Source: Scenedesmus sp. PABB004 | Taxonomy: Eukaryota | Direction of reading: 5' to 3' | Length of the DNA stretch: 64,000 nucleotides | NCBI GenBank assembly: GCA_014905635.1 | Contig: JABVCE010000032.1 | Span: 186,001 to 250,000, forward strand | Shown here: positions 159-64,000 of the stretch, piece after piece | Layout: each line of letters starts with the position of its first letter | How positions within the stretch are numbered: position 1 is the first letter of the stretch | Position numbers and translations under genes: made by a program | Notes under the pieces: generated by a model | Told to the model about the DNA's origin: nothing | The model's database searches: none | The model's input: only the letters and a program-made list of their open reading frames with translations

Positions 159-743
159 ATGGCTGAAACGGCGTCTAGCATACAGTTTGATTGTGTGCAC
201 CAATGGATTATCGTCTATGATGCAAAGGCGCTGCAAGACGTTGTCCCCGCATTCCCCGACAACCCCAAAGTATTGGAAGTGTTTCACACGTCGCCTGGAA
301 TCTCAGGAAACCCGCAGCGGAACCGTGCGCTGCAGTTGATCAAAGGCGGCATGGTGTACTTTCTTGATGATGACAACGCCATGCACCCAAGCTTTTGGGA
401 GTGGCTTCCTAAAGCCACTGCAGGTCATGTGTACACGTTTGACCAGTTACGTGGCGGTGAGCCCCTGCTTTTGAAGGGCAGCAATCCACGACCTAATTGC
501 ATTGACACCGCCCAGTTTCTGATCGACCGTGACCTAATCGGCAATACGACTTGGGAGATCAATAACTACGGCGCAGACGGGCCTTTCATCTCACAAATTG
601 TCCACAACCACAAAGCGCAGCATGTTTACGTTCCAAAAGTCCTGTCATTCCACAACTATGTCAAGTTAAAGTTAGCTGGGCAGAGCTGGACGAAGCTTGG
701 GACATGGAATCACTCAACAGCTCGCGGAGTGTGGCCATGCTGA
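159..743 (+). CDS. Intronless low-GC GT-A fold glycosyltransferase, GT43-like, probably N-terminally truncated
   Basis: Motifs WIIVYD, GNPQRNRAL, VYFLDDDN (DxD) and IDTAQF resemble GT43 motifs (WIVVED / QRNxAL / YFADDDN / ID(M/W)A). No introns; abrupt GC drop; no N-terminal ITPT-type strand or TM segment. Confidence 0.65.
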   Translation: MAETASSIQFDCVHQWIIVYDAKALQDVVPAFPDNPKVLEVFHTSPGISGNPQRNRALQLIKGGMVYFLDDDNAMHPSFWEWLPKATAGHVYTFDQLRGGEPLLLKGSNPRPNCIDTAQFLIDRDLIGNTTWEINNYGADGPFISQIVHNHKAQHVYVPKVLSFHNYVKLKLAGQSWTKLGTWNHSTARGVWPC

Positions 744-774
744 CAAGAGCGGGCTCAGTGACGCGGGTTGGGGA

Positions 775-843
775 TGGTTAAACAAAAGGAGCGGGCGTGG
801 TTAAACAAAAGGAGCGGGCGTGGTTAAACAAAAGGAGCGGGCG
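775..843 (+). repeat. Perfect tandem repeat, 23 bp x3
   Basis: TGGTTAAACAAAAGGAGCGGGCG at 775, 798 and 821; no spacers. Confidence 0.95.
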
Positions 844-1000
844 TTCTTGCTGGCGCGATGTGGACTCCCCAGGCTCCGCTGCGCAATTGGCACCCTATGC
901 CTATGGCATTTAAAAAAGAACCCTAACATGAACCCGAGGGGCGTCTGCGCGCACAGCTGTGGCGGTAGCAAAGGCAGCCCGCCTTTCCCTCGCTCGCAGG

Positions 1001-1232
1001 GCCGCGTGCTCGACTTTGACTTTGACGGACGTCGTGGGCCAGCCGCGCGCCAGCTTTCGCTTTGCGGCCACCTTGCCCTCCACACCCCCCCCCCCACAAG
1101 GAAGGCCACAGGGGCTGCAAGGTGGGGCGGTGGCCGGGCTGCGCGGGGCGCGCAGGCAACGAGGGGCACGGCCTGCGGCTCACGCTGCGCACCTGCCTGC
1201 GCGACCGCCAGGTCACGCTCATCCACGAGTAC
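1001..1232 (+). pseudogene. Degenerate internal fragment of the Nudix gene (intron retained)
   Basis: Diverged match to about 52528-52747 (VLDFDVVG... intron ...VTLI.EY), with frameshifts. Confidence 0.8.
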
Positions 1233-1660
1233 GACGATTGAGTTCCCGCTTGCCTGCGGCATCACCGTGGCACGCCGGTGCGGCTGGGGACGTCGGCGGG
1301 CGAGCGCGCGAACTGCCAGCGCCTGCCACCAGCTCGCAGGCTGTTCACCAGCCCCCGCCGCTTTTCTGTTCCTGCATCCGCGGCGTCGCGGTGGACAGCG
1401 TGCCGAGCGTGAAGTCTCGACAAGGCCGACGCTCGTCGAGCTGCGCCTGGGGCTGCGGTGGTTGCACTGCGTGCCCCAGTGCCGCCGATGGCAGCCGCGC
1501 CCGGCACACGGCCTCGGCGCCTGCACACCCACGCCCGCAGGTGATCGATGTGTCGAGCGTCATCCACGGAACAGCGTGGTCCATGCCAACCAGAGCGACC
1601 TCATCGTGGATGCCGCTGAGCCACCTTCACGTGAGCGCCGCGCCGCGCCAGCCGTCGTCG
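1233..1660 (+). pseudogene. TGD2: Degenerate TGD2 fragment (middle exons plus introns) fused to the Nudix fragment
   Basis: TIEFPLACGITV...IRGVAV...NSVVHANQSDLI; matches the reverse complement of about 50600-51063. Confidence 0.8.
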
Positions 1661-1824
1661 GGCAAAGCTAAGGATTCCCATGCAGAGCGCCCAATGCGTG
1701 GGGTTTGCTGGTTTTAGTACATATCAAAAATAGGAGAAAGTTGTAAAAATCGATGTAAAACTGGCCACCTGCACAGTCTCAGCACACTGCCCAGTTGCAC
1801 AGCGTTCCGCTCATTTGCAACCGG

Positions 1825-2166
1825 ATGTCGAATAAACAGCCGGGCTCGCCGGCCAAAAAATCCAGGTCACGGCACAAACAGTATGCCCTGTGCTGGTCGT
1901 TTGTCACTATAATCGTTCTTTTCTCTCACAGATTTCAAAATCCGTCAAAAGTTTCAGTCGTCGTGCCACCTGGAGTTCCAGATGTCGACCCTGAGTTGAC
2001 GAGAGGCGCGAATTTTCAACCATCACCACCACTCACTTCTGTGAACAATCACAGCTTTGACCCAGGCATCACCTACCGCAGCTACTACTCCGACGACGCA
2101 GAGCGCCCGAATGTGTGCAGGCTGATTGGCAGCGGGCGCGCTCCGCCTGCCCTCGCGCCTGGGTGA
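1825..2166 (+). pseudogene. 5' fragment of a low-GC intronless type II membrane protein gene
   Basis: MSNKQPGSPAKKSRSRHKQ (basic), YALCWSFVTIIVLF (TM), then a Pro/Ser stem; low-GC sequence ends near 2100; AT-rich leader at 1710-1760. Confidence 0.55.
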
Positions 2167-2773
2167 ACGAGGCTGGGGCGGTGGCAGGCTGCACGTCTAA
2201 TGTGCCGCCCACACGACGACCCTGTCGTCGTGTGGGCGGCACCCAACGCCCTGCAGGAGGGCGTTGACGAGTTCTTTGAGGCCGTGCAGGCCTAAAAAAG
2301 GCGGCCGCTGAAGGAGGCCGCGCCGCTGCTGGAGGAGGCGGCGCAGCTCACCAAGGAGGTCACGCCCCTGCTGCAGGTCTGGTTGAGGGGAGGGGGGTGG
2401 GGCAAGCGAGGCGCGAGGCACGCGCTGGGCGCTCGCCGCCGCCGCTGCCGCCTGCAGCACGCCGCGCGCTTGCCTGTCTTGCACCCCCCCCCCTAAACAC
2501 AACCAGGAGCTGCGCGCGGGCGGGCTGGTCGCCAACCTGGACCACCTCACCGAGGCGGCGGCGGGCGCCGCGGCCGACATCCAGGCGCTGCAGAGCGCGG
2601 TGCTGACCGACGACAACGTGCGCGCGCTGCGCGCCGCGGTGCTGACGCTGTGCAAGACGCTGGAGCACGTGGAGAGCATCAGCGCCGACGTGAGCGTGTT
2701 CAGCCGCGACACGGGCGTGCAGCGCAACCTCAAGACGCTCATCACCGCGCTCAGCCGCATCATCGAGGAGTAA
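2160..2773 (+). pseudogene. TGD2: TGD2 3' fragment (last intron and exons) with a premature stop
   Basis: EGVDEFFEAVQA* ... ELRAGGLVANLDHL...LITALSRIIEE*; reverse complement of about 49783-50377. Confidence 0.85.
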
Positions 2774-2879
2774 GGGGGGGGGGGGGGGACTGGCGGTGGC
2801 GTCTGCGGGCGGGCGCCGCCGCCCGCCCGGGCGCCCGGCAATGCGCCGCGGGCCGGCGGTGGGCCAGGCTCCTCGCGCG

Positions 2880-3390
2880 ATGGCGGGCGCCGGCCGACAG
2901 CCAGCCGGCGGCGCAGCAACTCCACACTCGCGCAGCGCAGCGCAGGATGCTCCCCGCCACGCGCATCCACACCGCTGACGGCGTCACCGCCCCGCCGCCG
3001 CCCCGCAGCGGTCGCGCTGGCGGCGCGCCAGGACGAGGCGCTGGACGGCATGATGATGAATGAGCTGCAGCCCGTCAGCGACCCCGTGCCCAGGCGTGCG
3101 CACGCGACACGCGCCGCTGGGCCGCCACCGCGGCGCGGCGCCACTGCAGCCACCCGCGCCCGATCCCGCGGCGCGCGCACGTGCCCCACCACGCACCCGT
3201 GCCTCACCCGTGCCTCGCCCGCGCCGCCCACAGGCTGCTGGCCGAGGCGCTCGGCAGCGCGGGCGCGTACGGCGGCGCGCCCACCGCCATACCCACCACC
3301 ACCGCCCCGCCCGCCCAGAGCGGCGCGTCGGCCGCCTCCGCCGGCGTGCAGAGCCTGCTAGCGGCCGCGCTCGCGCTCGGGATGTTCTGA
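2880..3390 (+). pseudogene. Small intron-containing gene or remnant, possibly secreted/GPI-type
   Basis: Exons VALAARQDEALDGMMMNELQPVSDPVPR and LLAEALGSAGAY...PTTTAPP...SLLAAALALGMF*; further copies at about 11410-11800 (-) and 13008-13095 (-). Confidence 0.4.
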
Positions 3391-3836
3391 GCGGCGCCTA
3401 CCTCCAGGGGGTGCCGAGCGCGGGTGCGCGCTGGGCGGCCAGCCGCCGCGCACAGCGGCGCGCAGCACGTGCGCCGCCGCTGGCCCGGCCAGTGCGCCCG
3501 CAGCTCGGCCGCCCGCCGTGCGGCGCAGTCGCTGCGCGGCGCGCGGTTGTGCTGGCGTGTGTCGGCCCGCCCCCCTGACCATTGGCCGGCGTCACGGCTC
3601 CGTGGCTGTGACCGAGGCGTGGGGCGGCCGAGGTCGGGCCGGGCGTCGGGGGCACTCTGCCTGGCTCTGTGCTGGCCCTGCGATTGATTGCCGCAGCAGC
3701 CCAGCGTGCGCCTCGCCACTGCGCGACAGGCCTGAATAATGTCTGTCGAATCGCACTGTGTGACCGGGTGACTCGACTCGCTCGACTCGCTCGCGCGCGC
3801 ACGCCGTCGACGCTCCCCCGCCCTTCACCCGAGAGC

Positions 3837-3970
3837 CCGCAGCGGGTCACGTCTTTGTTGCCTGCGCCTGCAGCTCCGCGCGGCTGTACCACACGATGCC
3901 CGCCATGCGATGTCGCGCACGCCAGCCCGGCGCCCTTTCAGCGACAGCTCGTCCCCGAACAGCACCCCAG
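3837..3970 (-). pseudogene. Copy of the 3' end of the nucleotide-sugar transporter gene
   Basis: Near-identical to 13103-13225 (LFGDELSLK...GIVWY). Confidence 0.8.
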
Positions 3971-4108
3971 CACGCGGCGGCTATCGCCTGCGCGGGGTTG
4001 GCCGCTACAATCGCCGCCACGATAACAAAACCCTGATCACCAGGTATTGAAAAAACGCAAAGGTATTAATAAAGCACTTTGGCACTTGTAATCACCAGAC
4101 CAACCGCT

Positions 4109-5092
4109 ATGGCGACACGTCCGTGCCGCGCTGTGTTCTTTGCAAGCAGCTTATGGCTTTTTTGCATGCTTGTTTTCTACTTTAATAACAATGAACGGAA
4201 AGTGCCTGAATCGAATGAAGCCGTTAACTTTACACAGCAGCGTCCACTGAAGCTGTACGAGCACCTATACCATCAACACTATGACGGCTTAATCAAAGCG
4301 CGGCAACTCGCCAAAGAGTTCTGCGCGGGGCCGCCACCGATAGCAAACACGCCCCATCACACGCACTGCCTGACGGGTGTGCTTGACAGCGAGTTGCTGT
4401 ACTTGCGCATAAGACATTTCCAGCCCAGCACAGTTGTCGAGGTGAGCTCTGCTCACGGGTACTCCACGCTGTGGATCCTTGTTGCGCTGGCTCACAACAA
4501 CAACGGGGGTGTCCTGCACAGCTATGACATTTTCCCCACCCCGTTTCCGCGGGTTTTGCCCGAGGCGCATCGGAAGCACTGGCAGTTTCACGAAGGGGAC
4601 ATGAAGGGGTCTTTTCAAGCTTCCCTTGTCAACACCCATGTCGACTACCTGCACATCGACACTTGCCACGAAGCGCCTTGCGTGCGTTGGTACTTGCGGA
4701 ACGTTCTGGAGTTTGTGGCTGCCAAGGTGACACCGACAAGGCCCACATACGTTTCGATGCACGACATCTACGAGACTTTCTACCAAATGGGCTCCAATGT
4801 GTCCAGCACAGCCGAGAAGGTCATGCCCATGCAGGAGGGCGTGCTGCTGTTTGAGTGGCTCGCTTACTCCGGGACAGCGCGGCACCTGCACAACTTTAAT
4901 CCGGGCGCGAGCACCATGGCTGACCAAATCCAAGCTGTTCGGACCAAGTTGCTCAAGGACGATGCCAACGACCTGTTGCGCATGCCGTGTCCATCCTGCC
5001 AGGGCTGGTCTGGTCGCGACCCAATATTTACCGTGTACTTTGAGCTGATGCCCCTTGAGGCAAACTGCTGCGACGATTGTATTGTCACTTGA
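4109..5092 (+). CDS. Intronless low-GC class I SAM-dependent methyltransferase (Methyltransf_24-like) with N-terminal signal anchor
   Basis: ATG 4109; TM AVFFASSLWLFCMLVFYF; motifs VVEVSSAHGYSTLWI, LHSYDI, FHEGD, VDYLHIDTCH, SMHD; AT-rich leader 4021-4100. Confidence 0.75.
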   Translation: MATRPCRAVFFASSLWLFCMLVFYFNNNERKVPESNEAVNFTQQRPLKLYEHLYHQHYDGLIKARQLAKEFCAGPPPIANTPHHTHCLTGVLDSELLYLRIRHFQPSTVVEVSSAHGYSTLWILVALAHNNNGGVLHSYDIFPTPFPRVLPEAHRKHWQFHEGDMKGSFQASLVNTHVDYLHIDTCHEAPCVRWYLRNVLEFVAAKVTPTRPTYVSMHDIYETFYQMGSNVSSTAEKVMPMQEGVLLFEWLAYSGTARHLHNFNPGASTMADQIQAVRTKLLKDDANDLLRMPCPSCQGWSGRDPIFTVYFELMPLEANCCDDCIVT

Positions 5093-5102
5093 GTAAAAGT
5101 GA

Positions 5103-6120
5103 GAGCACTCTGCCGCACCCAATCGAGCTCTCTGCCGCACCCAATCAAGCTCTCACGAGCAGCACCGCCGATCAACAACTGGGAGCTCGGAGACGCTGTC
5201 TGCGGCGCCCGAGCCGACCACGCCGCACCAGGCGCCCGCGCCGCCGCGCCGGCGCGCGCGGCGGGGGCCCGGCGGCGCCGGCGTAGCGTGCGCGCCGCCG
5301 CTGCGCGATGGGGCTGACGACCCCGACTCCAGCGGCGACGACAGGGACAGCCCGCCGAGCTGGGCGGCTGCGGATGAGGGCGCGCGCCAGCTCGAGGCGG
5401 TCGCGGCGCGCCTGCTCGCACAGTCCCGGCAGGCGATCCAGAGCGCGCAGCAGACGCTGCAGGAGACGGCGACCAACTGCCAGGCCAACCTGCAGAGCCT
5501 CGGCACGCTGCTGCAGGCGGTCAGCCTGCAGCAGACGGCGGCGGGCGAGGTCAGCCTGCAGACGGCGGCGGGCGAGCACGGCCTGCCGCGCAGCAGCAGC
5601 GGCGGCAGCCTGCAGCTCGCGCCCTGGCAGCAGCCGAGCGGCGGCGGCGGCGGCGAGCAGGCGGCGCCGTGGGACTTGGTGCCGCGCGCGTGGCGCGACG
5701 GCGACGAGCAGCAGCAGCCGCCGTCGGCGTCGGGCAGCAGCAACAGCCTGGTGCTCTTTGCGCGCAAGGCCAACGGCGGGCTGCTGCCGGAGCGGCCCGG
5801 CGGCAGCAGCGGCGAGAACGGCACGGGCGGCGAGGGTGGCGGCGGCGGGTACCAGCAGATGGCGGACTACCTGGACCTGCTGCACCGCCGACGGCCCGCC
5901 GCGCGCAGCCTGCGCGACCCGGGGCGCTCCGTGGCGATCGTCACGACCGCGAGCCTGCCCTGGATGACGGGCACGGCGGTCAACCCGCTGCTGCGCGCCG
6001 CGTACCTCGCTAACAACGAGGAGCGCCAGGTCACGCTGCTGCTGCCGCCGTGGTGCGCGCCGCGCCGAGCCGCCGTGCCCGCAGGCGCCAGCCGGCTCCG
6101 CACCTCCGTCTTGACACGCA

Positions 6121-6152
<32 letters not shown>

Positions 6153-8147
6153 AGGCTGTCGCGGCCGGACCAGCAGCTCGTCCTCCCCAACACCGTCACC
6201 TTTGACTCGCCGGCGGACCAGGAGGCGTTTGTGGGGGAGTGGGCGCAGAAGCGCACGGGGCTGGCGTGCGGCTTCAAGGTCCGCTTCTACCCCGGCCGCT
6301 ACGCGCCGGAGAAGGGTGCGGCGCGGCGCGGCGCGGCAGGCGTGTCGCGGCGCCCGCTGCAGGCCGCGCGCTCACGCGCGGCCGCCGCCGCCCGGTGCTG
6401 CAGGCAGCATCCTGCCCGTGGGCGACATCACGCAGTACATCCCCGATGCCGAGGCGGACGTTGCGGTGCTGGAGGAGCCGGAGCACCTCAACTGGTGCGC
6501 GCTCGCAGCGCCCGTCCAGCGCGTGCGCGGGCGTGCCGGCCCTCACTGAGCGCTGCCGCCGCGGCCGCCGCAGGTACCACCACGGGCGGCGCTGGACGGA
6601 CAAGTTCCAGCACGTCGTGGGCGTGATGCACACCAACTACCTCGACTACGCGCGCCGCGAGGAGCGGGGGCACATCAAGGAGGCGCTGCTGCGGTGCGGG
6701 CGCTCGCCACGCGGGGACGGCACCGCATGCACCCTGGCGCCGACGGCGCGCGCCGCGCCCCCGCCGCTGCGTGCAGGCACATCAACGCCTGGGTGTGCCG
6801 CATCTACTGCCATAAGGTCATCAAGCTCAGCGACGCGGTGCAGCCGCTGCCGCGCGAGGAGACCATGTTTGTGCACGGCGTCAGCCCCAACTTCCTGCGC
6901 GTCGGCGAGGCCAAGGCAGCGGCGGCGGCGCAGGGCGCGCGCGCGTGGTCCAAGGCGCGCGCCGGGGGCGCTGGGCGGGGCGGCGCGGGGCCGGGCCGGC
7001 TGGCGCGGCCTGACCGCGGACGTGGCCGGCTCGCCGGCGCAGGGCGCCTATTTTTTGGGCAAGGTGCTGTGGGCCAAGGGCTACACGGAGCTGCTGGAGC
7101 GCCTCAACGAGCACGCCGCGGCGACGGGCGACAACGTGGAGGTGGACGTCTACGGCGCCGGGCCCGACCTGCCGGTGCGCCGCCGCAGGGGCGCACCGTA
7201 GCCCCGCTCCGCAGCCCCGCGCCACCCGCCGACCCGTCGTTGCCGACCCGGCGCCGGCACGCACGCGCCCCTGCGCCGCCGCCGCCGCCGTGGCCCGCGC
7301 AGGCGGTGCAGCAGGAGGCGGCGTCGCGGCGGCTGAACCTGCACTTCAACGGCCCGCGCGACCACGCGGACGCGTCGCTCGCGGACTACAAGGTCTTCAT
7401 CAACCCCAGCCTCAGCGACGTCGTCGCGACGACCACCGCCGAGGCGCTGGCGATGGGCAAGTGGGTCGTGTGCGCGGAGCACCCCAGCAACGAGTTCTTC
7501 GCGCAGTTCCCAAACTGCCTCGTCTACAGGCGCGTTCTGAGCGCCCGCCGGCGCGCCGCCCGTCCCGCGCGCGGCGCCCGCCGCTCAACGCCGCCGCCGG
7601 CGCCCGCCGACGCCCCCCCCCCTTCAGGACGCCGGACGAGTTCAGCCGCTGCCTGCGGCACGCCATGGCGCGCGACCCCGCGCCGCTGTCGGCGGAGCAG
7701 CTGCACCGCCTGACGTGGGAGGACGCGACCGAGCGCTTCCTGCAGGTCGCCGAGCTGGGCCGGCCGCCGCAGCCGCAGGAGCAGCTGCTCGACAACCTGC
7801 TCGCGGCGGCGCACAGCGCGCTCACGGGCGTGGAGGGGCTGCGCGTGCTCGCGGGCGCGGGCGCGGGCACGCGCGACTCGCCCGCGAGCGTGACCGCCTA
7901 CACCCCGAGCGAGTCGGACGTGGGCGGATGGTTCGACGACGCGAGCCGCGCCAAGCGCGCCTACGGCGGCGGGGGCGCCGTCGGTGCCAGCGCGGCGGGC
8001 GAGCAGCCTCGGCGGCGGCAGGCGCAGCAGGCGCAGCAGCAGCAGCAGCAGCAACGGCAGCAGGCACCGCCGGGGCCAGCGCGAGCAGGGGCGGCCGCGC
8101 CCGCCGCGGCCGAGGCTGCGGGGCGGCAGGGCGCGCGGCAGCGCTGA
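5103..8147 (+). CDS. DGD1: Digalactosyldiacylglycerol synthase (GT4), multi-exon, 5' start codon apparently missing
   Basis: [85 protein letters not shown]; about 7 introns; frame open from 5103, first in-frame ATG at 5859. Confidence 0.9.
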
Positions 8148-9996: not shown

Positions 9997-10418
9997 CCAG
10001 CAGCAGCGTCACCACCTAGGCGCCTAGCGAGGGCCAGCGCCTTCTGGCGGCAGTGCGGCCGGGTCGCGGCAGCACCGGCGACCGCTGCCCGGCTGCTGGG
10101 CACGCCTGGTGTGCGGCCAGGACGCGGCCTCGCGCGGCGCGAGCACGAGGCGCTGCGCCAGCGTCACCACCATCGCCTGCTGGCGCTCCGGCTGCTGCGC
10201 CGCGCCCGCGTCAGCCGCGCCGCCGCGCTTGGCCGCCCGCTGCTGGCGCCGAGCTCTGCAGCGAGAAAGGCCACCAGGCCTGTAGCAGCCGGCAGGTGAA
10301 CCCTAAACCCTTGACCAGTGTCGGAGGAATAAGGGCATTGGGCTCCTCTGGCGGCAGAGCGGCGGCGCATGGCGGCGGCGGGCTCATCGAGCCGGCACGA
10401 GGACATGCTGACCCGGCG

Positions 10419-11261
10419 TTACGGGCATGTTTTCAAATAATCGTGGTCATGCACAACTGGTGAGAGGTCGCCCCGGACGCGACATTCGCCCTTTTGCCGC
10501 GTGTGCGGCAACCACCGGTCGCGCCCACTCACGACAATTGAGCGAAACATGGCCGTGGCTTTGCTTTCTGCGTGCTTTATGGTGGAAATGTTGGGGTCAA
10601 ATACAATTGCATCTGGCCGGACGGCAAAGAAATCCGTATTTATAAGGGCTGTTGCGCAGTTCTTCTCATCAGGGCAGGGCGTGTCCCCGCAATCGGCAAA
10701 GATGCCGTCCACGTCAGCATTGTGCATCGCTTCCAGCAGCCACGTGTCGTTGCGAATGATGACGTCAGGGTTGAGCCGGATCACCCAGTCAAACCCGTCA
10801 AACCACCCTCTCGCGAGCGCCACATCCAAAGCCAGGATGGCACCTTGCTGGTAGCCCGGGTTGGTGTACTCGTGCAGAGTGACGGTGGTGTTGGGAAACG
10901 TGCGCGCCAGCAGCTCTGCCCGCTCCGAGTAGCCGCAGCCGGTGGAAAAGACGGTCACCTGTTCCACAGAGCGCAGCAGCGCTGACCGCACGATGGCTCC
11001 GGGCCAGCAGCGCTGCAAGAACTGGACGTGGGAATCCGAGAATTGGGAGGTGATGAAGAGCGCAACGCGAGGGCTGCTGCTGTTTGTGAGATTGTTGGTA
11101 GTGTTGGTCGCGCGTGAGCCGAGCTTCCATGCCGTGACTTTAAAAGACCAGGAAGCCTCTGCGGGAGTCCTGAGAACGTGCCACACCGCATCCGTTGAGA
11201 GCAAGGCGAATCCGAGCACGACAGCTAAGACCGTCGCCCTTGTGCTGGCGTCCGTGGACAT
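10419..11261 (-). CDS. Intronless low-GC type II membrane protein, putative GT-A-like glycosyltransferase of unknown family
   Basis: TM VLAVVLGFALL; stem with N-x-T/S sequons; NPGYQQGAILAL, FDGFDWVIRLNPDVIIR; clean 280-aa ORF. Confidence 0.6.
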   Translation of the reverse strand: MSTDASTRATVLAVVLGFALLSTDAVWHVLRTPAEASWSFKVTAWKLGSRATNTTNNLTNSSSPRVALFITSQFSDSHVQFLQRCWPGAIVRSALLRSVEQVTVFSTGCGYSERAELLARTFPNTTVTLHEYTNPGYQQGAILALDVALARGWFDGFDWVIRLNPDVIIRNDTWLLEAMHNADVDGIFADCGDTPCPDEKNCATALINTDFFAVRPDAIVFDPNISTIKHAESKATAMFRSIVVSGRDRWLPHTRQKGECRVRGDLSPVVHDHDYLKTCP

Positions 11262-11362
11262 TTTTTAATTTATATTTATCCTCCACTCCACTAACATTTT
11301 TAGTTTTGTCTGCGTTTTTCAGTCCAGTGCGCTAACAATTCACAACAAATAAAATAACCCTT
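11262..11362 (-). promoter_or_regulatory. AT-rich leader / putative promoter of the 10419-11261 gene
   Basis: Minus strand reads ...GTTATTTTATTTGTTGT...TGAAAAACGCA...GATAAATATAAATTAAAAA-ATG; motifs shared with other insert leaders. Confidence 0.5.
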
Positions 11363-11409
11363 AGCTCACTCAGGCAGCCGGCGCTGCTGCGTGGGTGGCG
11401 CCGCTTTTT

Positions 11410-15617: not shown

Positions 15618-15856
15618 CGGGCGGTCAGGGCTGCCCATGCGCAGCAGGTGTGTGTAACCTCGTGCTCCCACCGGGCGGTGCAGCGTGCAACGCTCGTCGC
15701 CAGCACCAGGCCTGCGTGAGCGCCGCGGCAGCCAGCAGCAGCAAGCCACGCCGGCGCTTGCGCTGAGCATCGCTGGGCCCGGCCAGCAAGGCACGCGTGC
15801 GCGGCGCCCGCCAGTGCCCCAGCCACAGCGCCGCCAGCTTCACAGCGCCGCCAGCT

Positions 15857-17549: not shown

Positions 17550-17558
17550 CCAGCGAAC

Positions 17559-48110: not shown

Positions 48111-48153
<43 letters not shown>

Positions 48154-49782: not shown

Positions 49783-50051
49783 TCACTCCTCGATGATGCG
49801 GCTGAGCGCGGTGATGAGCGTCTTGAGGTTGCGCTGCACGCCCGTGTCGCGGCTGAACACGCTCACGTCGGCGCTGATGCTCTCCACGTGCTCCAGCGTC
49901 TTGCACAGCGTCAGCACCGCGGCGCGCAGCGCGCGCACGTTGTCGTCGGTTAGCACCGCGCTCTGCAGCGCCTGGATGTCGGCCGCGGCGCCCGCCGCCG
50001 CCTCGGTGAGGTGGTCCAGGTTGGCGACCAGCCCGCCCGCGCGCAGCTCCT

Positions 50052-50082
<31 letters not shown>

Positions 50083-51602: not shown

Positions 51603-51978
51603 AGTGACGGGGAGCAGCTGCGTCCAGGCAGCCTGCGCGGCCGGTGCTGCTGCTCCCTCTGCTGCGAGCTGGCCAACGCCGGAGATCGCTCGCGCTTTGG
51701 CCCTGGATGGTCAGCGGCCAACGAGCGAGCAGCGGGCTGTGGCAGCCAGAGGCCTGCGCCGCAGCCCGCCGGCCGCAGGCCGCGGTGCGCGACGCCGCGT
51801 TTTTGGCACTGCGCCGCCGGCATGTCCGATCTTGCCCCCCACTCAGCTCAGCTTGGGTGTGCGCGCCCTCATCACGCCACCGCCGGGCCTCACAGCGCTG
51901 CGGCAGCCGCCAACCGCCGCTGCTGCAGCCGCCTCGCGGCGGAGCACGCATCTAGCCAGCCCGTTGCTGGCGCGCTGC

Positions 51979-53321
51979 ATGCGCCTGGCGGTGTCGGGGG
52001 CGCTGCTGGCTCGGCGGGGCGCTGGCCTGGCGGCACGCGGCGCCTGGAGCAGCAGCGGCAGCAGCGCCCGCGGCGGTCGCGCGGCAGCCTCGGCGCGCTG
52101 CTCGCCCGGCGGCCCAGGTGCGGCGCGCGGGCTGTGCCTGGAGAGGCTGCGCGGCCGGCGGCTGGCTTGCGCGTCGCCACCAACGCATGCGCCGCACGCT
52201 GCCCGCCTCTGCCGCCGCCCGCTACCCCCAGGCAGCGCGGAGCCGCCGGCGCAGCCCACGCAGCAGCAGCACGCAGCGCCCGACAACGGCCGCCAGCTGC
52301 ACCCGCAGCCGGCGCTGCAGGTCGCGCCGATGCAGCAGTACGAGCTCGTGTCGGAGGCGCCGCTGCACAGCCGCTACCTGACCGTGTACGACCGCCGCGT
52401 GCGCTTCTGCGCGCCCGGCAACCCCGCCGAGGTGTGCGGAGCGGCGCAGGGGGCCACAGCCAGGCGCGCACATGCGTGGTGCTGACCGCAGCCCGCGGCC
52501 GCCGTGCCACCTCTCGCGGTCGACAGTGCCGCGTGCTCGACTTTGACGTCGTCGGCCACCCGCGCGCCAACTTCTGCTTCGCGGTCACCTTTCCCTTCCA
52601 CCCCTACAAGGACGGCCGCAGGGGCGGCGAGGTGCGGCGGTGGCCGCGCTGCGCGGGGCGCGCAGGCGACAAGAGGGGCGCCGCCTCTGCGGCTCACGCC
52701 CCGCGCCTGCCCGCCGGGCCGCCAGGTGACGCTCATCCGCGAGTACGCGCAGGGCCCGCACGCGCTGGCTTACTGCCTGCCCACGGGCGGGCTGGACCCG
52801 GGGCGCCACGCGGACGTCGCCGAGTGCGCCGCGCGCGAGCTGAGCGAGGAGGTGCGCGGCGGGCGGGCGCGCGGGGGCAGCGGCGGCTCTTTGGTGCTTG
52901 TCCGAGGCTGGCCGTGTGCCGCCACCTCGCGCCTGCCTCTACCTGCGCAGGCCTGGCTGGCGGGCGGCCAGTGGCACCGTCTGCTGGCGCCGGAGCACCC
53001 GGGGCTGCCCGAGGTCAAGTGGTGCATGAACCGCTTCGTGCCGTTCCTGGTGGTCGACCCGGACACCGACCCCCAGCCGGGCAGCCGGGACGCGGAGGAG
53101 GCGAGCATGGAGGCGCGTGCAGATGCTGCCGGGCGCTGCAGTCGGGTGCCGCCGCGCCCGCGCACCGCCGCCGCCCGCCCGCTCGCCTGCCGCAGGTGCT
53201 GCGGCTGCCGCTGGACGAGTTTCGGCGGCTGATGGTGTCGGGCGAGATGCTGCTGCCCTCCATCACCACCGCCTACATGGCGCTCGACAGGCTGCGCGAG
53301 CTGGGCCTGCTGGACGACTAG
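51979..53321 (+). CDS. Nudix hydrolase with organellar targeting peptide, intact
   Basis: Nudix box LPTGGLDPGRHADVAECAARELSEEA; six exons splice in frame. Confidence 0.85.
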
Positions 53322-53357
53322 CGGGCGATCAGGGCGGCCCAGGATGTGCAGCAGGTG

Positions 53358-53362
53358 TGTAA
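53358..53362 (+). terminator. Chlorophyte polyadenylation signal TGTAA
   Basis: 37 bp after the Nudix stop; conserved in the duplicate near 15653. Confidence 0.5.
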
Positions 53363-53546
53363 CCTTGTGGTCCCACCGGGCAGCACGCACTGAACCCTCG
53401 CCGCCAGCACCAGGCCTGCGCGAGCGCCGCGGCCGCCGCCAGCAGCAAGCCATGCCGGCGTTTGCGCTCAGCACCGCTGGGCCCCGCCAGCAACGCACGC
53501 GTGCGCGGCGCGCGCCAGTGCCCGAGCCACAGCGCCGCCGCCAGCT

Positions 53547-54341
53547 TCACTTGGCGGGCACGATGACCACGGGCCGCTTGCTGTGGTGCGTGCAGTACTG
53601 GCTCACGCTGCCGAGGAAGAACTCGGCGACGCGGCCCTTGTTGTGGCTGGCCATGACGATCGCCGCCGCGTCCAGCTCGTCTGCCTTTTTGCACAGCACG
53701 TGGCCCACGCTCTCGGTGTCGACCTCGGACTGCGCGCGGCGGCGGTGGCGGCGGTGGCGCTGTGAGGTGCTGCTGCGAGCAGAGCGCGGTCGTGCGCAGC
53801 GCCTGACGCTGCGCGCCCGCTGCCCTCACCTTGACGATGTGCACGACCGGCGCCCTGATCGCCGGCGGCAGCGCGCGCACGAAGCGGTCGATGATGAACT
53901 GCTCCGCGCGCTGCACACGCGGCAAGGGCAGAGGGGGCGACGGCGCCAGGGCGCTGGTCAGCGCGCCCGCAGCGCGGTGGCAAGCGCCCAGCGAGGGAGC
54001 GCGCGCGCGCACCTGCACCGCGGACTCGTACGCGCTGCTCTCCGCTGCGGGCACAAAGTCCACCGGCGGCACGCCGTACTGCGGCCGGCGCGTGCCGCGG
54101 CGTGAGAGGCAGGGCAGGAGAGGGGCGGCGGCGCTGACGCACTGCCGCGACTCGGCCGCCGCACCTGCGCCGCGAACGCGAGGCGCGGCACCACGTGCAC
54201 GAGGTGCAGCTGGTCGCCGGCGCGGTGCAGCTGCTCCAGCGCCCAGGCGAACGCGCGGGCGCTGTCGTCGCTGTCGTCGACCGCGATGAGCAGCACGCGC
54301 TGCTGCTGCTGCTCCGCGGGCGGCGGTGCGAGCTCAGCCAT
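53547..54341 (-). CDS. Universal stress protein A-like
   Basis: Same USP motifs as 39964-40766; four exons. Confidence 0.85.
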
Positions 54342-54569
54342 CGCCTCGCAGCTCAGCGCAGTGCTGCTGAGCGGGCGTGGCTCGCGCGGCGCGCGGACCA
54401 GGGGTGGTGGCGTTCGTGCGCGCCGCCGCCGCTGCCGATCGCTGTGCGGCTGGCGAGGGCGGCGGCGTCGGGAAGCGAGCGGGAGGGCGGCCGTTGCACC
54501 ACGGCTTTCTGGACGACCGGCCGGCAACTCACAAGCACCCCTCCAACCGCGCGGGGCTTTGCGAGCCCG

Positions 54570-57500
54570 TCACGACGCGCCGCCGCCCGCGCGCACGGGC
54601 GGCGGCGGCGCGGCGTCAAAGCGCTGCGGCGGGCGCGCGGCGTGCAGCCACGCCTGCTGCGGGCCGGCCGCGTGGTCGGGGCAGACAAACTCGTCGTCGC
54701 CCGCCACGCCCGCGCAGCCCGGGTGCATCGCCACGCCGCACCCCGGCGTCTCGCACAGCGCGACCTCGCCGCCGCCGCCGCAGGCGAGGCAGGGCAGCGC
54801 CCACTTGCCGTCCGGCGGCTCGTCCGCGTCGGCGTCGGCACCATCCCCGGCCACGTCCTCGCCTGGCAGGCCCAGCTTGGTGCGCTGGCGCGCCGACACC
54901 TTGCGCTTGGGCTCGGCGGCGTCGGCCTGCGCGCGCGTGGGTGCGGGCGGGCAAGGCATGTGGGCGCTGGCCGCGCTCGTGACTGCACCGACGAGGCCGC
55001 CGCCGGCGACAGCAAAGCCTACGCGCCTTGGCGCTGCGCGCCGCGGCCGCGCGCGCGGCGGCGCCCTTCTTGTCCTCCAGCAGCGCCTCCTCCCACGGCG
55101 CGGGGCCCAGCAGCAGCTCAGACTTGCGCGCCACCGCGGCGCCCCTGCGGGCGCCGTGGCGGGGGCGGGCGGTGCGTGAGGACGCCGCACTGTGCCGCAC
55201 ACAGCCCTCCCCCCCCCCCCGTCCCCGGGGGCTCGCGCGCGCCCCCACCTGTCCTCCGCGATCGCCGCCGCCACGCCGGTGCGGATGCGCGCGAGGGCGA
55301 GGTTGGACATCAGGCGCTGCGGGCGGCGGCGGGAGGGGGCGGTGAGGCCGGCGGCGCGCGCAGGCGGCGCAGGCCCGGCGGCGCAGGCGCGGCTCCGCTC
55401 ACGTGCGCGCGGTCGACGAGCGCCGCCGTCGCGTAGGCGGCGCCGCCGAGCGCGCCCGCGCTGCGCGCGCGCCGCAGGTCCTTGATCCACACCCCCAGCT
55501 CGCGGCTGCTGCGCCACAGCACCACGGGCGGCGGCGGCAGCGGCTCGCCCGCCTTTTCGGCGGCGCGCTTCTCAAGGTAGCGCTTCTCCGCCTCCACGTC
55601 TGCGGCGGCGGGGCGTGCACGCGTGCGCGGTTCAGGGCGTGCGGCACCCGGGCAGAGCGAGACGCCGCCGGCCGCCGCCGCGCCCCCCACGCCTGCACGC
55701 ACCCGAGTCGTCGAGCTCCTCCAGGGGCGCGACCATCTTGGCCACGTCCTCGCCCCCGCCGCCCGGTGTGCCCGCGCGGCCGGCGCCCGCCTTGCGCACG
55801 CGCGTGGCGCCCGAGAAGAGCGTGACGAGCGGGCCCCTGTGCGAGGGGTCAGGGTTGGCACTGTCGTCGTCGCCGCCGCCCTCGTCACCGCCGCCGGCGG
55901 CCGCCGCGCCGCCCTTCTTGGCGCCGCCGCCCTTCTTGCTGCCGCCGCCCTTGCCCTTGGACTTGCTGCCGCCCTTGCCGCCGCCGCCCTTGCCCTTGGC
56001 GCGGCTGCCACCGCGCCCGGCTGGCGCGGCGGGCGGCGCCGGCGCGCCCTTGGCAGCCCCGCCGCCGCCTTCCTCCCCGCCCTCGCCGCCGTCGGCGCCG
56101 TCGCCGCCGTCGCCGCCCTCGCCCGCGGCCGCCTTCTCGGCCGCGGCCGCGGCCGCGGCCGCCGCGGCCGCGGCCGCGGCCGCCGCGGCCGCCTCCTGCT
56201 GCTCCGCGAGCTCCGCCGCCGACACGGGCATCACAAACTCGGCCTCGTACGCGTCGGCCTCGCGCACCGCCTCGTCCAGCAGCTCCTCGGTCGCGCCGGG
56301 TGGGCGGCCGTCGCCGACGCGCGACAGTGCGGCCTCGAGCTCCTCCAGCACCTGGCCTGCGGGCGTGCGCGTGGCCGGGGGGGGGGGGACACCGTGGCGG
56401 ACGAGCGCGTCGTTGCCTGCTCAGCCCGCGCCGCAGCAGGCGGCGCAGGCGGCGCGCGCGACCGCGGCGCGGCGGCGCGGCGCGAGGCGCGCGCGCCGCT
56501 CGCTCACAGAGCTCGTCCACGCTCGTCTTGCCGCGCAGGCGGGCGCGCCAGTGCTTGACGGGCAGGTCGTAGATGCCCGCGCCCACGAGCGTGCTCACGA
56601 GCGCCTCCAGCTCGCTCAGGCACGCCGCCACCGCGGTCGCCTCCGCGCACGCCTGGGCGCGCAGGCGGGAGTGAGGAGGGGCGTGGGCATCAGTGGCGCT
56701 GCAGGCTCGGTGCGCTGGGAGGCTGCACGCGCAGCCGGCGCCGCGCGTCGCACCCGCACCTGCAGCTCCTCGCAGGACGGCGGCGGCGCGCGGGCGCGTC
56801 CTTCCAGCTGCTGCCCGCCGGCCGGCCCCCGCGCGGCCAGCCCGTCGCGTCCAGGGGCGCGCTGGCCGGCATGGCGGCCGCGGCGCGGCGCAGCCAGGCG
56901 GCGCGCTGCCGGCGGCCGCGCGGCACGGAGCGCACGTCGAGCGGCAGCTCCGGCGGGCGCAGGCAGCGGGTAAACTCGTCGCGGCGCCTGTGCAGCGCCT
57001 GGTGCAGCGCGCCCTCGCGTGAGCCGCGCTTGTTGAGCGCCGCCAGCAGCGCGTCGAGCTGCACGCGGCTGGTGATGAGGCCCAGCGAGTCGCCCCCGGC
57101 CGACTCGACAAAGATGACGGACGGGTCGGACTGCAAGCGCGCGGGGCGCGGTGGCGGCGGTAGGGGAAGGGGAGAGGGGCGTCAGAGCGCCCTCTCCTCC
57201 CCCCCGCTCGCCAGCCCCCGCGCCCACCTGCATGTGCCAGTAGCGCTGGTGGTGGCGGTCGGTGCCCAGCGGCTCGGAGCGAATCGCCTGCCGCGCCGCG
57301 TCGGCGGTGAGCGCCTCGGGGTCCTCCGCGCCGCGCCACGCGCTGCTGCCGCCGCCGCCGCCGCCGCCGTGCCAGCCGTCCGCGGCGCTCGACGGGTCGG
57401 GCGTGTCGTCGCGCGCGCTGAAGCCTGCGGGGGGGGGGGGGCACGGGCGCATGGGGCGGCCGGCTGCGCGCCCGCCGCACACACCCCGTGCGCCGGCAGG

Positions 57501-60769: not shown

Positions 60770-61613
60770 TCTGCCGCGAGGGGGCCCGGCGGCTTCCTGG
60801 GCAGCCTCTACATATGAGCGGCAGCACGCGAGGACACGCACGTCGCTCACACGGCTGTGCGCCGCCGCAGGCCCGACCGCTGGCGCTCGACGCGCAGGTC
60901 GCTGCGCGACTTTGGGCTGGGCCGGTCGAGCGTGGTGGAGGGCGGGATCGGCCTTTTCACGCTCGCCGACGGCCTGCTGGGCGTGGCGCTGCTGGCGTGG
61001 GTCAAGGGCACCGCGCTGCGCAAGGGCCGGCCGTACACGGCGCCGGTCGAGTTCCCACTCGCCTGCGGCATCACCGTGGGCACTCCGGTGCGGCTGTGAG
61101 GCGCCGGCAGGCGCGCGAGTTTTTGCGCGCCTGTCGCCAGCTCAGCAGCCGCTCCAGCCGCCGCCGCTTGCCCGTTTCTGCACCGCTCCCAGGTGCGCAT
61201 CCGCGGCGTTGCGGTGGGCAGCGTGCTGAGCGTCAAGCCCAGCCTCGACAAGGTCGACGTTCTCGTCGAGGTGCGCCGGTGGCGGGGCGGCGCACTGCTC
61301 CCCTCGCCCCAGTGCCGCATCGCGCGTGTCCGACGGCACGCGGCCTCGGCACCTGCACTCGCGCCCCGCGCCTGCTGGTGAACGACGTGACGAGTGTAAT
61401 CCCGCGCAACAGCGTGGTCGAGGCCAACCAGAGCGGCCTCGTCGCAGATCCGCTGGTCGACGTCACGCCCCAGCTGCCACTGCCCACCTTCACGTGAGCG
61501 ACGCGCCGCCAGCCTGCTCGGACAGCACAATCGTGCCGTCACGCCGCCGCGACGCGCGGCACCGCCGGCGCGCTGTGTGCGAGGCGGCCGCGTGCGAGGC
61601 GGAAGACGCGATT
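60770..61613 (+). pseudogene. TGD2: Inverted partial TGD2 duplicate
   Basis: GGFLGSLY / SLRDFGLGRSSVVEGG ... LPLPTF / AACEAEDAI; damaged splice sites; 3' half missing. Confidence 0.9.
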
Positions 61614-62104
61614 GGGGCCCGACATGAGTTTGTCAGCAAACCAGAACGTGTGCGTGAAGGCGTCCAGCACCATGAGCGCGGCCAGGCTGGAGAGCGCCGC
61701 TGTCTCGGCATCAGCGTCGCCGTCGGCCGCGCGTCTGCACGATCAGCTCGCCGCCAAAGCGCACGAGCACATTGGCACCAGCATCTCCACCACGTCATTC
61801 GTGTGCTGCAGCGCAAATAGTCGAGCAGGCCGTGCTAGGCTCCTCCGCCTCCAAGGGTGCAGAGCGCCGCTGCGCCCAGCTGCCCAGCCGCTGCGTGCAG
61901 TGGCACATTGCGCGCACGCGCGCCACCGCTGGCCAGGCTCGTGCGGCCGCGGTGCGATGGCCTGACCGTTGTTGCGGCCCGGCGCCTGTGTTGGCCCGGC
62001 CCGCCCGTGCTCCTGACCATTGTCGGGGCGTTATGGCTCCGTGGCTGTGACTGAGGCATGGCGGGCGGCCGCGGTCGCCGGGTGCGTCTGTCACATGGCT
62101 GGAA

Positions 62105-62361
62105 ACCCCAAGGCTTCAAAACTGACAGTCAAAAAGTCAAAGTGATGTTCCTGCCTCCTGCAGCAACTCTCGCAGAGGACGACACTTGGCAGGGGGGAGA
62201 CTGGTTGCGTCTGCGGCTTTGTGGAAAGTCCAAGTAAAGCCTGGTGGCGCCCCACTATCGACGAAGTGGACGTCGAGATTGTCTGCGCAGACTGCAGCGT
62301 GCACGAGTGTGTATGTCGAGCGGTTGGCTGTGAGCGCTTTGAAATCAACCAGGCTTGCTTC
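62105..62361 (-). pseudogene. Frameshifted FkbM-like (Methyltransf_21) methyltransferase fragment, low GC
   Basis: EASLVDFKALTANR...VHAAVCAD..VHFV...CRPLRELLQEAG, then a frameshift to HFDFLTVSFE (compare HIDFFSLDVEG). Confidence 0.55.
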
Positions 62362-62572
62362 AGCGGCCGCCGCTGGGACGGCGCCCGCAGGTGGCCGCTG
62401 CGGCGCTGGCTGCCACGTGGGCTGGCGCACGTGGCAAAACACATCAAGTGTACAATTATTCAACTGTGCGTAGGACTTGCCGCGAACTTTTTGAGCATGT
62501 CCCGGGCGTCGCCGATGAAGGTGGCGGCGATGCGGGGAGGCGCGGACACGAAAGAAACACTCGTGGCGCGCG

Positions 62573-62792
62573 CAGCACGGCGGTGGAGGCGAGCATGTGC
62601 AGAGCAATGCTGCAAGACGCACACGTGCCGGGCCTGATCGACGAGTTCCTGTTTGGCTACCACGTCACCTTTGCGCCCATGGTGGGAGCGGGCTGGGGTT
62701 TGACGATCGATTCGAATGCGATGCTTGTGGACGCGTTCCAGCTGTTTGCAGAGCTGCGGCGGCACGGCGTGCGCGCGCACTCCTGGGTGTAA
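62573..62792 (+). pseudogene. C-terminal fragment of a different putative FkbM-like methyltransferase
   Basis: LIDEFLFGYHV...WG...DAFQLFAELRRHGVRAHSWV* resembles the C-terminus of algal FkbM-like proteins, recognised from memory. Confidence 0.5.
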
Positions 62793-63387
62793 TGTCTGAC
62801 TGCCTGCTGGATCCGGGCGTCGCGCGTGAGCAGTTGCACGCCAACCATGCCACACGCTCACGAGGCGTGCTGGCGGCCGCGCGCGTGCAGGCATGCCCCC
62901 CCCCCTCCCCAGCCACGCGTGCAGACCACCTGACGAACTCGAGGGGGCCCAGCAGCATCAATCCAGCTGGCTACCAACACAAACTCTCGACTGTGGCCAA
63001 CCCGCGCGCGGAACGTCAGCTGCGCTGGCATCCGCGTGCACTGGCAGCAGCTGCGCAGCTACTGGTGCGTGGAGCCAGCGGGGGGCGTCCTGCCAAGCAT
63101 TCCTGGCCGTCTGCACTTGCACAACCATGCAGGACGCTGCCCTGGGTATGTGGAGGTGTCGCTGGAGGCATCGCTCGACTGAGCCCAGGCTGACCAGAGC
63201 ATAAGAGTGTCGGCACCATTGCCAAGTGCTGGGCCGCCGCCCTGGCCCGAGCTCACCCGACCATCCACTCTGCCCAGCCATGATGCAGGTAATGTGCTGG
63301 CCTGTGGCTGGCATGGGTGAGCGCCGGCATCACACCACGGCGTCCCACTAGGCGGCGAGCAGCCCGCGCAGTAGCCACGGATGACAC

Positions 63388-63920
63388 CGGCCGCCAGCTG
63401 CACCCGCAGCCGGCGCTGCAGGTCGCGTCGATGCAGCAGTACGAGCTCGTGTCGGAGGCGCCGCTGCACAGCCGCTACCTGACCGTGTACGACCGCCGCG
63501 TGCGCTTCTGCGCGCCCGGCAACCCCGCCGAGGTGCGGAGCGGGGCGCAGGGGGCTAGACGGTCGCACCGCGCGCGCACACCCAGGGCCGGCGCTGACCG
63601 CAGCCCGCGGCCGCCGGGCCACCTCGCGCGCGCGACACAGTGCCGCGTGCTCGACTTTGACGTCGTGGGCCACCCGCGCGCCAACTTCTGCTTCGCGGTC
63701 ACCTTTCCCTTCCACCCCTACAAGGACGGCCGCAGCGGCGGCGAGGTGCGGCGGCGGCTGCGCTGCGTGGGGCGCGCAGGTGAGGGGCACCGCCTGCGGC
63801 TCACGCCGCCCGCGCGCCCTCCCGCCCGGCCGCCAGGTCACGCTCATCCGCGAGTACGCGCAGGGCCCGCACGCGCTGGCCTACTGCCTGCCCACGGGCG
63901 GGCTGGACCCGGGGCGCCAC
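63388..63920 (+). pseudogene. Internal Nudix fragment copy (introns retained)
   Basis: Matches about 52287-52809; breaks inside the Nudix box after PGRH. Confidence 0.9.
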
Positions 63921-63929
63921 ACAGCCCTG

Positions 63930-64000
63930 GAACTGCAGCGCCACCATTGACGCAGTGGAAGTCGCGATTGTCGGCGCAGACCGCAGTCGCTCAGCGGCAC
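63930..64000 (-). pseudogene. Second, diverged paralog fragment of the FkbM-like piece, running off the window edge
   Basis: CCACCATTGACGCAGTGGAAGTCGCGATTGTCGGCGCAGAC aligns to 62252-62292; encodes AVCADNRDFHCV. Confidence 0.55.

Follow-up and report, generated by a model that had tools for sequence, protein, structure and literature searches.

The question raised by the 64-kb stretch of DNA analysed here (hereafter the window, by which we mean the whole stretch) is how a series of short blocks of low guanine-plus-cytosine (GC) content, most of them carrying genes or gene remnants related to glycan-modifying enzymes, came to lie in DNA of about 75% GC. Seven such islands and the start of an eighth are present (Table 1), and in their composition they are foreign to the DNA around them. 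The explanation that we favour, tentatively and with somewhat less than even confidence, is that they are domesticated glycan genes of giant-virus type, which would have arrived in one or a few integrations of a gene cluster and would later have been dispersed by duplicative rearrangement.

The compositional evidence is the most direct. When GC content was followed in 200-bp windows, whose median is 0.755, seven stretches fell below 0.62, in a sequence whose 1-kb bins otherwise range from 0.70 to 0.83; the DNA separating the islands has 70-83% GC. After refinement of the edges at the position of largest GC contrast across 80 bp, the interior of the seven islands showed a GC of 0.48-0.57, and the contrast at their edges was abrupt, at 0.21-0.61 across 80 bp. 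The islands are only 0.4-1.2 kb long, and the foreign DNA amounts to about 7 kb in total, in single-gene pieces. Their open reading frames (ORFs) have a GC of 0.51-0.59 and a GC at third codon positions (GC3) of 0.58-0.72, against 0.75-0.80 and 0.77-0.91, respectively, in host ORFs, while the codon usage of island ORFs correlates with that of host ORFs at r = 0.16-0.61, compared to 0.84-0.94 for host ORFs among themselves. The proportion of glycine, alanine, arginine and proline (GARP) is about 0.24 in island proteins and about 0.5 in host ORFs. The 100 bp ahead of the ATG has 29-49% GC (31% in island 4; in island 6, the 80 bp upstream of the ATG has 17%), with host-type DNA of more than 70% GC directly upstream, and past the stop codon GC climbs back within 0-100 bp. 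All five island ORFs are uninterrupted, whereas the host SecA gene is split. No DNA similarity was found between islands, except between islands 7 and 8, and for the four families that were searched, tblastn with 353 proteins revealed neither additional paralogues nor GC-rich copies within the window. In these respects a preliminary description of the locus, made from its letters, has stood: the islands it reported are real and its coordinates agree with our refined edges, the genes are intronless as it stated, and the foreign origin it proposed on grounds of composition is in line with a GC3 and codon usage set apart from those of host ORFs.

Table 1. Low-GC islands of the window and the duplicated or truncated host segments around them (window coordinates)
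Feature	Positions	Strand	Content
Island 1	142-932	+	GC 0.52; ORF 159-743, GT-A-like, apparently 5'-truncated, DDD motif, no membrane anchor
Island 2	1704-2089	+	Relic; AT-rich leader 1704-1824, ORF 1825-2166
Island 3	4019-5201	+	ORF 4109-5092, type II-anchored Methyltransf_24 methyltransferase; AT-rich leader of about 90 bp
Island 4	10260-11372	-	ORF 10419-11261, type II-anchored, GT-A-fold family without Pfam entry
Island 5	16340-17560	+	ORF 16497-17549, type II-anchored RXYLT1_C/GT47-like transferase
Island 6	45071-46106	+	ORF 45156-46082, type II-anchored DUF5672 protein, GT8-like GT-A fold
Island 7	62087-c.62800		Two relics
Island 8 (start)	63930-64000		Paralogue of the FkbM-like relic; runs off the window end
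Host fragments between islands 1 and 2	997-1657		997-1233, NUDIX-exon copy; 1232-1657, inverted MlaD-region copy of 51064-50596 (70%)
Mosaic upstream of island 3	2154-3979		Five or more short host pieces copied from other parts of the window
Left flank of island 5	14506-16222	+	NUDIX-Usp copy (87%) of 52242-53914, ending at the island's left edge
Right flank of island 5	17558-23282		17558-18749, copy (82%) of 48709-49972 (GYF); then inverted partial SecA copy
Left flank of island 6	44184-45040	+	Enoyl-CoA hydratase exon, truncated (positions 26-158 of the 251 in the ECH_1 profile), reaching up to the island's left edge
"Parent" host block	48709-54651		GYF - MlaD/TGD2 - NUDIX - Usp, longest copy; pieces recur beside islands
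Left of island 7	60781-61614	-	Inverted copy (83%) of 50489-51375 (MlaD region)
Beside island 8	63359-63920	+	Copy (88%) of 52251-52809 (NUDIX exon region), stopping at island 8

What the islands encode is the second part of the evidence. Within the window, all five island ORFs and two relic fragments of island 7 are related to glycosyltransferases or methyltransferases, island 2 being without a family. In Pfam scans, which took in 5, 22, 47, 150, 6 and 42 window ORFs (partly overlapping sets), the product of island 3 matched Methyltransf_24 with 48.2 bits (cutoff 26.3), that of island 5 matched RXYLT1_C with 35.7 bits (cutoff 27), and that of island 6 matched DUF5672 with 108.4 bits (cutoff 24.4); the 25.3 bits obtained by island 5 against the GT47 exostosin family lie under the cutoff of 33.4 and denote a resemblance only. 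The protein of island 4 has no match in Pfam, NCBIfam or PHROG, and its family comprises at least 55 database proteins; overall, NCBIfam and PHROG contributed weak matches only. For the products of islands 4 and 6 we obtained AlphaFold2 models. That of island 4, built on 17 sequences in which the window protein was joined by 16 of the 55 hits, has a predicted local distance difference test score (pLDDT) of 85; that of island 6, for which 30 of the 120 listed hits were added to the window protein to give 31 sequences, has a pLDDT of 86. The island 4 model has a GT-A fold, matching PcManGT, K4CP and COLGALT1 (E about 1e-7, Foldseek probability 1.00), and its best viral structural match is an unnamed BFVD protein (E 1e-19, 27% identity). 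The island 6 model matches GT8-type GT-A enzymes, namely glycogenin (E 2e-7), LARGE1 and UGGT, again with a Foldseek probability of 1.00. In the respective family alignments, an NPD motif and D166 of island 4 and an FQTD motif and D174 of island 6 are invariant, and both proteins keep all residues that are invariant or conserved in at least 90% of sequences; invariant and near-invariant family residues are indeed retained throughout by all four complete island proteins. On the strength of these models, islands 4 and 6 probably encode GT-A fold glycosyltransferases in which the acidic motif is present, their catalysis being predicted only.

Each of the four complete ORFs also begins with an N-terminal hydrophobic stretch of 19 residues (Kyte-Doolittle hydropathy 1.8-2.3), modelled as a helix in islands 4 and 6, which fits the type II topology of Golgi enzymes. 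The likeness to RXYLT1/TMEM5, to GT47 exostosins, to the GT8 enzymes glycogenin and LARGE, and to class I S-adenosylmethionine-dependent methyltransferases (Methyltransf_24, FkbM) lies in these domain and fold matches and in the shared topology, the solved enzymes having only 10-19% sequence identity to the window proteins. Judging from predicted folds and topology, the intact genes are likely to serve the addition or methylation of sugars on glycans that are secreted or belong to the cell wall. For island 1 the glycosyltransferase signals are weak (phrog_8858, E 0.001; GT43 and GT2, E 0.01-0.03, below the cutoff; PDB 9jma, E 0.026), and its ORF looks truncated at the 5' end because the first strand and the anchor are missing. 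The claim that these islands code for glycan-type enzymes is thus upheld by Pfam or fold for the five ORFs, weakly so for island 1, as is that of a type II signal anchor in the four complete ones. Three small features were seen at the margins of these genes. A perfect 23-bp tandem repeat in three copies (100% identical, 775-844) follows directly on the stop codon of island 1, and a 22-bp repeat of 2.4 copies (5103-5154) on that of island 3. A perfect hairpin with a 12-bp stem and a 5-nt loop (16343-16371) sits exactly on the 5' GC step of island 5, and could be the leftover terminator of a gene that was its neighbour in the donor.

Other islands have decayed. In island 2, the first 88 or so codons of the ORF are low in GC and include a stretch that weakly resembles an anchor (hydropathy 1.16); Pfam gave no family match for it. 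Island 7 holds, on the minus strand at 62146-62346, a fragment of an FkbM (Methyltransf_21) domain that is 33% identical to that domain of an environmental protein, and, on the plus strand at 62574-62792, a fragment with 38-40% identity to the C-terminal 72 residues of a methyltransferase-DUF5672 protein 1189 residues long, the final octapeptide being the same in both. That an eighth island starts at the end of the window follows from the 84% identity between 63938-63986 and 62249-62297. The relics support the loss of genes besides their gain. Islands 2 and 7 had both been listed as remnants of glycan genes, which the methyltransferase-related pieces support for island 7, island 2 being without an assigned family.

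The third part of the evidence comes from relatives of these genes elsewhere, in viral and environmental contigs. Alignment queries of IMG/VR returned 339 confirmed relatives of DUF5672, many of them on giant-virus metagenome-assembled genomes, along with 239 GT47/RXYLT1-like relatives and 4 members of the island 4 family; single-protein queries of viral contigs, unlike the alignment queries, gave no matches. In JGI metagenomes, 128 relatives of the island 4 family were found, on gene-dense contigs of 33-63% GC. Co-occurrence was then evaluated by tblastn of 8 window peptides against 244 fetched loci. On an environmental contig of 15 kb (L033, 1-15244), a Methyltransf_24 gene 48% identical to that of island 3 lies 3.5 kb from a gene of the island 4 family, in a compact glycan cluster that also holds FkbM, GT2, DUF268 and DegT aminotransferase genes, and this cluster is a possible model of the type of donor involved. 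Two further loci (L001 and L011) have the island 4 family adjoining DUF5672, the first of them with FkbM and GT34 as well, and on five IMG/VR contigs GT47-like genes are separated from DUF5672 genes by 0.4-4.1 kb. Also seen in the neighbourhood of these families were GT10-Stealth-GT2 fusions, Methyltransf_24-TylF-GT17 fusions, GDP-mannose dehydratase and sugar transporters. Within L033, L001 and L046, cluster genes range in GC from 0.50 to 0.68 and in GC3 from 0.52 to 0.79, with a mean codon r of 0.48-0.56. This is the spread of the islands, so that a donor of this kind would explain them without later GC drift or several donors. On another contig, of 201 kb (L020, 9824-14373), a domain of the island 4 family is fused to GT2, and an ORF for a tyrosine recombinase (Phage_integrase) lies 1 kb downstream; a near-identical 330-kb counterpart of this contig is viral according to IMG/VR.

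The DNA around the islands provides the last part. Pfam scans place the domains of SecA in order across 33.8-39.6 kb, split into many reading-frame pieces, and identify MlaD/TGD2, M16 peptidase, papain, Usp, NUDIX, GYF and PHD families elsewhere in the high-GC DNA; SecA and TGD2 together point to a plastid-bearing eukaryote with introns. The island genes have their closest named relatives in Raphidocelis subcapitata, Monoraphidium minutum and Chlorella vulgaris. Genomes of Selenastraceae have 70% GC or higher, according to two reports (PMC5966456, PMC12571836), and those of Mamiellales 48-64%, according to another (PMC5082852). Because of these named relatives and the background GC, the host is a Selenastraceae-like chlorophycean and not a member of the Mamiellales, the setting to which the preliminary description had likened the locus, and the window is best explained, as far as sequence goes, as nuclear DNA of a very GC-rich alga of this kind. 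A high-GC ORF between islands 3 and 4 (6550-7710, plus strand) has a sub-threshold match to Glyco_trans_1_4 (E 3e-5) and may, from its sequence, be a native glycosyltransferase exon. The background also contains a run of 22 G (30489-30510) and, at 48028-48150, some 40 tandem copies of CGG.

This host DNA is extensively duplicated around the islands. Self-similar high-scoring segment pairs of at least 100 bp make up 36.9% of the window, and 7 of 13 island edges lie no more than 100 bp from the end of such a pair, with 2.6 expected (5000 simulations, P about 0.005), in agreement with the earlier statement that the islands abut broken or duplicated host fragments. Identities among the host copies run from 70% to 98.5%, which indicates that rearrangement was repeated over time and is partly recent. 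A piece with the NUDIX exon is present in four copies in the window, three of which adjoin islands 1, 5 and 8. Island 2 sits within an inverted copy of 51064-49758, of which it replaces about 213 bp. The pieces of the mosaic upstream of island 3 are copies of 50383-49758, 18749-18549 (98.5%), 11827-11470, 13094-13002, 61848-62082 and 13103-13237. Island 5 lies exactly at the point where the end of a copy of 52242-53914 adjoins the start of a copy of 48709-49972, the order expected of a tandem-duplication or circle junction; similarity to the host copy restarts 8 nt past its stop codon, and the adjoining 18728-23282 duplicates, over 4.6 kb and in inverted orientation, part of the chloroplast-type SecA gene (39111-34498, 90%), introns included. 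Beside island 6, of 42 small plus-strand ORFs scanned around the island, the 22 of at least 35 residues in the 3.4 kb downstream include no remainder of the truncated enoyl-CoA hydratase. Within the mosaic, 2584-2784 and 18749-18549 are 98.5% identical to one another and share only 82-85% identity with the copy near 49.8 kb; comparison of the three sequences suggests a recent exchange or duplication between mosaic regions.

Taken in sequence, the scenario that we tentatively prefer would begin with a donor of lower GC in whose genome glycan genes were compactly clustered, a giant virus or else DNA that such a virus carried. A cluster of this sort, integrating once or a few times, would have brought in genes for glycosyltransferases, three or four in number, and for sugar methyltransferases of at least two kinds, all of Golgi type with type II membrane topology. 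Repeated duplicative rearrangement would then have pulled the cluster apart, wedging copies of nearby host segments (NUDIX-Usp, MlaD/TGD2, GYF and SecA) between the foreign genes, and the survivors would be minimal working units, each an AT-rich leader of 60-100 bp followed by its ORF, some of which decayed to the relics. We favour a single cluster because the families are neighbours elsewhere, because eight islands lie within 64 kb, and because their spread in composition equals that of single clusters.

Several observations weigh against this reading and should be considered together. Apparently intact host genes (papain, M16 peptidase and SecA) stand between the islands, so that a single-cluster origin needs large rearrangements. 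The assignment of island 1 to a family is weak, and island 2 has none. No relative of the Methyltransf_24 family was found in IMG/VR by alignment query, and the label "viral" is that of IMG/VR itself, a capsid search having covered one 22-kb record with no match, a result that is uninformative because the control genomes were likewise silent. The closest relatives of the island genes are only 49-61% identical to them, and none points to a donor. Lastly, we compared two of the genes with algal and viral sets in trees, both midpoint rooted, with most rows unlabelled and an uneven composition that we flag here. In a FastTree phylogeny of DUF5672, for which 45 of the 80 viral loci and 59 of the 120 listed hits joined the window protein to give 105 rows, island 6 groups with two Raphidocelis and seven unlabelled proteins in a clade of 10 rows (support 99), the rest of the tree consisting largely of viral rows. 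In a quick IQ-TREE of the GT47-like proteins, in which the window protein was set beside 45 of the 80 viral loci and 25 of the 26 hits (71 rows in all), island 5 belongs to a clade of 6 rows (support 100) whose other members are a Chlorella vulgaris protein and four unlabelled rows; this clade lies amid viral and unlabelled lineages. A phylogenetic comparison with algae and viruses thus places both genes with green algae, outside the sampled virus clades, and names no donor. The trees show families that green algae and large viruses have in common, and vertical descent within green algae is compatible with them.

The way in which the islands are seated in the duplicated DNA would also suit a different history, which we consider rather unlikely, in which a hotspot takes up foreign genes singly during the repair of double-strand breaks, with nearby host copies as filler and continual turnover. 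The match between island edges and duplication endpoints, the placement of island 5 exactly at a tandem-duplication or circle-type junction, and the segment of about 213 bp replaced by island 2 inside an inverted host copy all speak for it, as do the different ages of the flanking copies (70% to 98.5% identity), the existence of relics, a GC3 that spans 0.58-0.72 from island to island, and closest named relatives that vary by island among Raphidocelis, Monoraphidium and Chlorella. In insertional mutagenesis of Chlamydomonas, moreover, stray genomic fragments co-insert with foreign DNA, which we count on the same side. Such serial capture, however, needs a strong hotspot to bring eight islands into 64 kb, and neither junction microhomology nor a templated-insertion signature has been demonstrated. 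It also posits several donors or events that are not needed, given that single environmental clusters match the islands in GC3 and codon spread and hold the same families as neighbours; beside the account in the preliminary description, according to which the genes were inserted one at a time by templated repair, one integrated cluster later taken apart explains the islands no less well.

Quite unlikely, in our opinion, is a native origin, according to which these would be vertically inherited, fast-evolving Golgi glycan genes whose low GC is kept locally, for example in a variable region that escapes GC-biased gene conversion. The grouping of Raphidocelis, Monoraphidium and Chlorella homologues with the window genes argues for it, and in the Mamiellales the outlier chromosome holds a lower GC over long periods, according to the report on it (PMC5082852). 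Two further observations are on its side. A homologue of island 4 from Monoraphidium minutum (P0127) has a GARP of 0.24, likewise of the low-GC type, despite a genome reported to exceed 70% GC, and Monoraphidium may carry similar islands; and on an environmental contig (L042, 1-6356), DNA of about 70% GC abuts a block of at least 2.3 kb and about 50% GC with a gene of the island 4 family. The contrast within this contig and the make-up of P0127 suggest that the phenomenon may recur in other GC-rich algae. Against native genes, however, speak the GC step within tens of bases of the ORF ends, with interspersed host copies of 75-80% GC, the lack of introns in islands where host genes are split, and an identity of only 43-49% to named algal homologues. 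The Raphidocelis homologues, in addition, are host-like, with a GARP of 0.43-0.51, from which it follows that long residence does raise GC. As for a chimeric assembly or contamination, in which reads from an organism of lower GC were joined into an algal contig, we regard it as very improbable, because there are eight separate islands of 0.4-1.2 kb each with algal DNA on either side, a host copy restarts 8 nt past a stop codon, relics have decayed in place, and the repeated host segments, at 70-91% identity, are so divergent as to argue against an artefact, unlike the near-identical repeats that are collapsed or misjoined.

Genes for movement were also sought. As the preliminary description had stated, no mobility gene came to light: none of the families of transposases, reverse transcriptases, integrases or giant-virus hallmarks turned up in Pfam scans of window ORFs. 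Among the hallmarks of nucleocytoplasmic large DNA viruses (NCLDVs), the major capsid protein, PolB, the A32 ATPase and VLTF3 gave no match in these scans, which small or decayed fragments could escape. No terminal inverted repeats are shared at the island leaders. A telomere-like motif was not enriched at the island edges (6 matches, 2.9 expected; 11 of 100 shuffles reach as many). A cargo-carrying transposon such as a Helitron, a Pack-MULE or a Polinton was rejected, since no transposase, Rep or integrase family and no shared terminal repeats were found, and retroposition was ruled out by the missing poly(A) after the stop codons and by promoter-like, AT-rich DNA upstream.

Among known systems, the closest is the small outlier chromosome (SOC) of the Mamiellales, such as chromosome 19 of Ostreococcus tauri, which, according to the report on it, is lower in GC, rich in genes for glycosyltransferases, methyltransferases and sugar metabolism, some of them putatively foreign, prone to rearrangement, and proposed to take part in resistance to prasinoviruses (PMC5082852). 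The families found here (FkbM, Methyltransf_24, DUF5672 and GT-A) also occur in SOC-like compact clusters on environmental contigs. The present locus differs in that its host belongs to the chlorophyceans and has background DNA of about 75% GC, that single genes and not a whole region are low in GC, and that these genes are scattered among duplicated host fragments instead of being gathered on one small chromosome.

Endogenous viral elements of giant viruses (giant endogenous viral elements, GEVEs) offer a second point of comparison, and according to Moniruzzaman et al., in 2020, they are reportedly widespread in green algae. They have been reported for Chlamydomonas (PMC9693826), and those of Euglena have been described as eroded by duplications and insertions (PMC12455990). 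In both cases giant-virus-type genes lie within an algal nuclear genome, but here the scanned window ORFs include no hallmark gene, the foreign DNA consists of about 7 kb of single-gene pieces that encode glycan enzymes only, and there is no contiguous viral region of tens to hundreds of kb. That four ORFs are complete and uninterrupted suggests retention by selection and not passive decay. The transfer of glycosyltransferases from viruses to eukaryotes is a general pattern that Irwin et al. reportedly described in 2022, and our locus resembles it in that giant-virus-type families are seen as intronless, compositionally odd eukaryotic genes; it departs from it in that several unrelated families lie within 64 kb, each at a breakpoint of a host segmental duplication. 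Our literature search found no paper describing such islands in Selenastraceae, and the words "low GC" and "glycosyltransferase" are absent from the Raphidocelis genome paper. What is new is therefore the different algal class and the single-gene, breakpoint-associated layout, the themes themselves being known, and the claim of a new system goes too far for a locus that varies on the transfer of glycan genes between viruses and algae, on eroded viral insertions and on the outlier chromosome of the Mamiellales.

With regard to function, the models give probable folds for two poorly known families, namely a GT8-like fold for DUF5672 and a GT-A fold for a family of at least 55 members without a Pfam entry. 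A role of the islands in virus resistance is a conjecture, drawn by likeness to Ostreococcus. In its boldest form, which we think unlikely, GC-rich chlorophyceans would own a counterpart of the "viral immunity chromosome" of the Mamiellales, a nursery driven by rearrangement that captures giant-virus-type Golgi glycosyltransferase and methyltransferase genes at break-repair junctions, as promoter-plus-ORF units that escape GC drive, and that through quick gain and loss diversifies surface glycans and so blocks the attachment of viruses; were this so, convergent "glycan hypervariability loci" would be a general antiviral strategy of green algae. If the more limited reading favoured here is true, that of a foreign cluster of giant-virus type dispersed by rearrangement, a freshwater chlorophycean has the functional set of the outlier chromosome of the Mamiellales, with glycosyltransferases, FkbM, Methyltransf_24 and DUF5672 proteins, and the locus becomes a tractable case in which to follow how foreign genes enter and persist under extreme GC drive. 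It would also suggest that the reshaping of surface glycans by virus-type enzymes is a recurrent feature of the coevolution of algae and their viruses.

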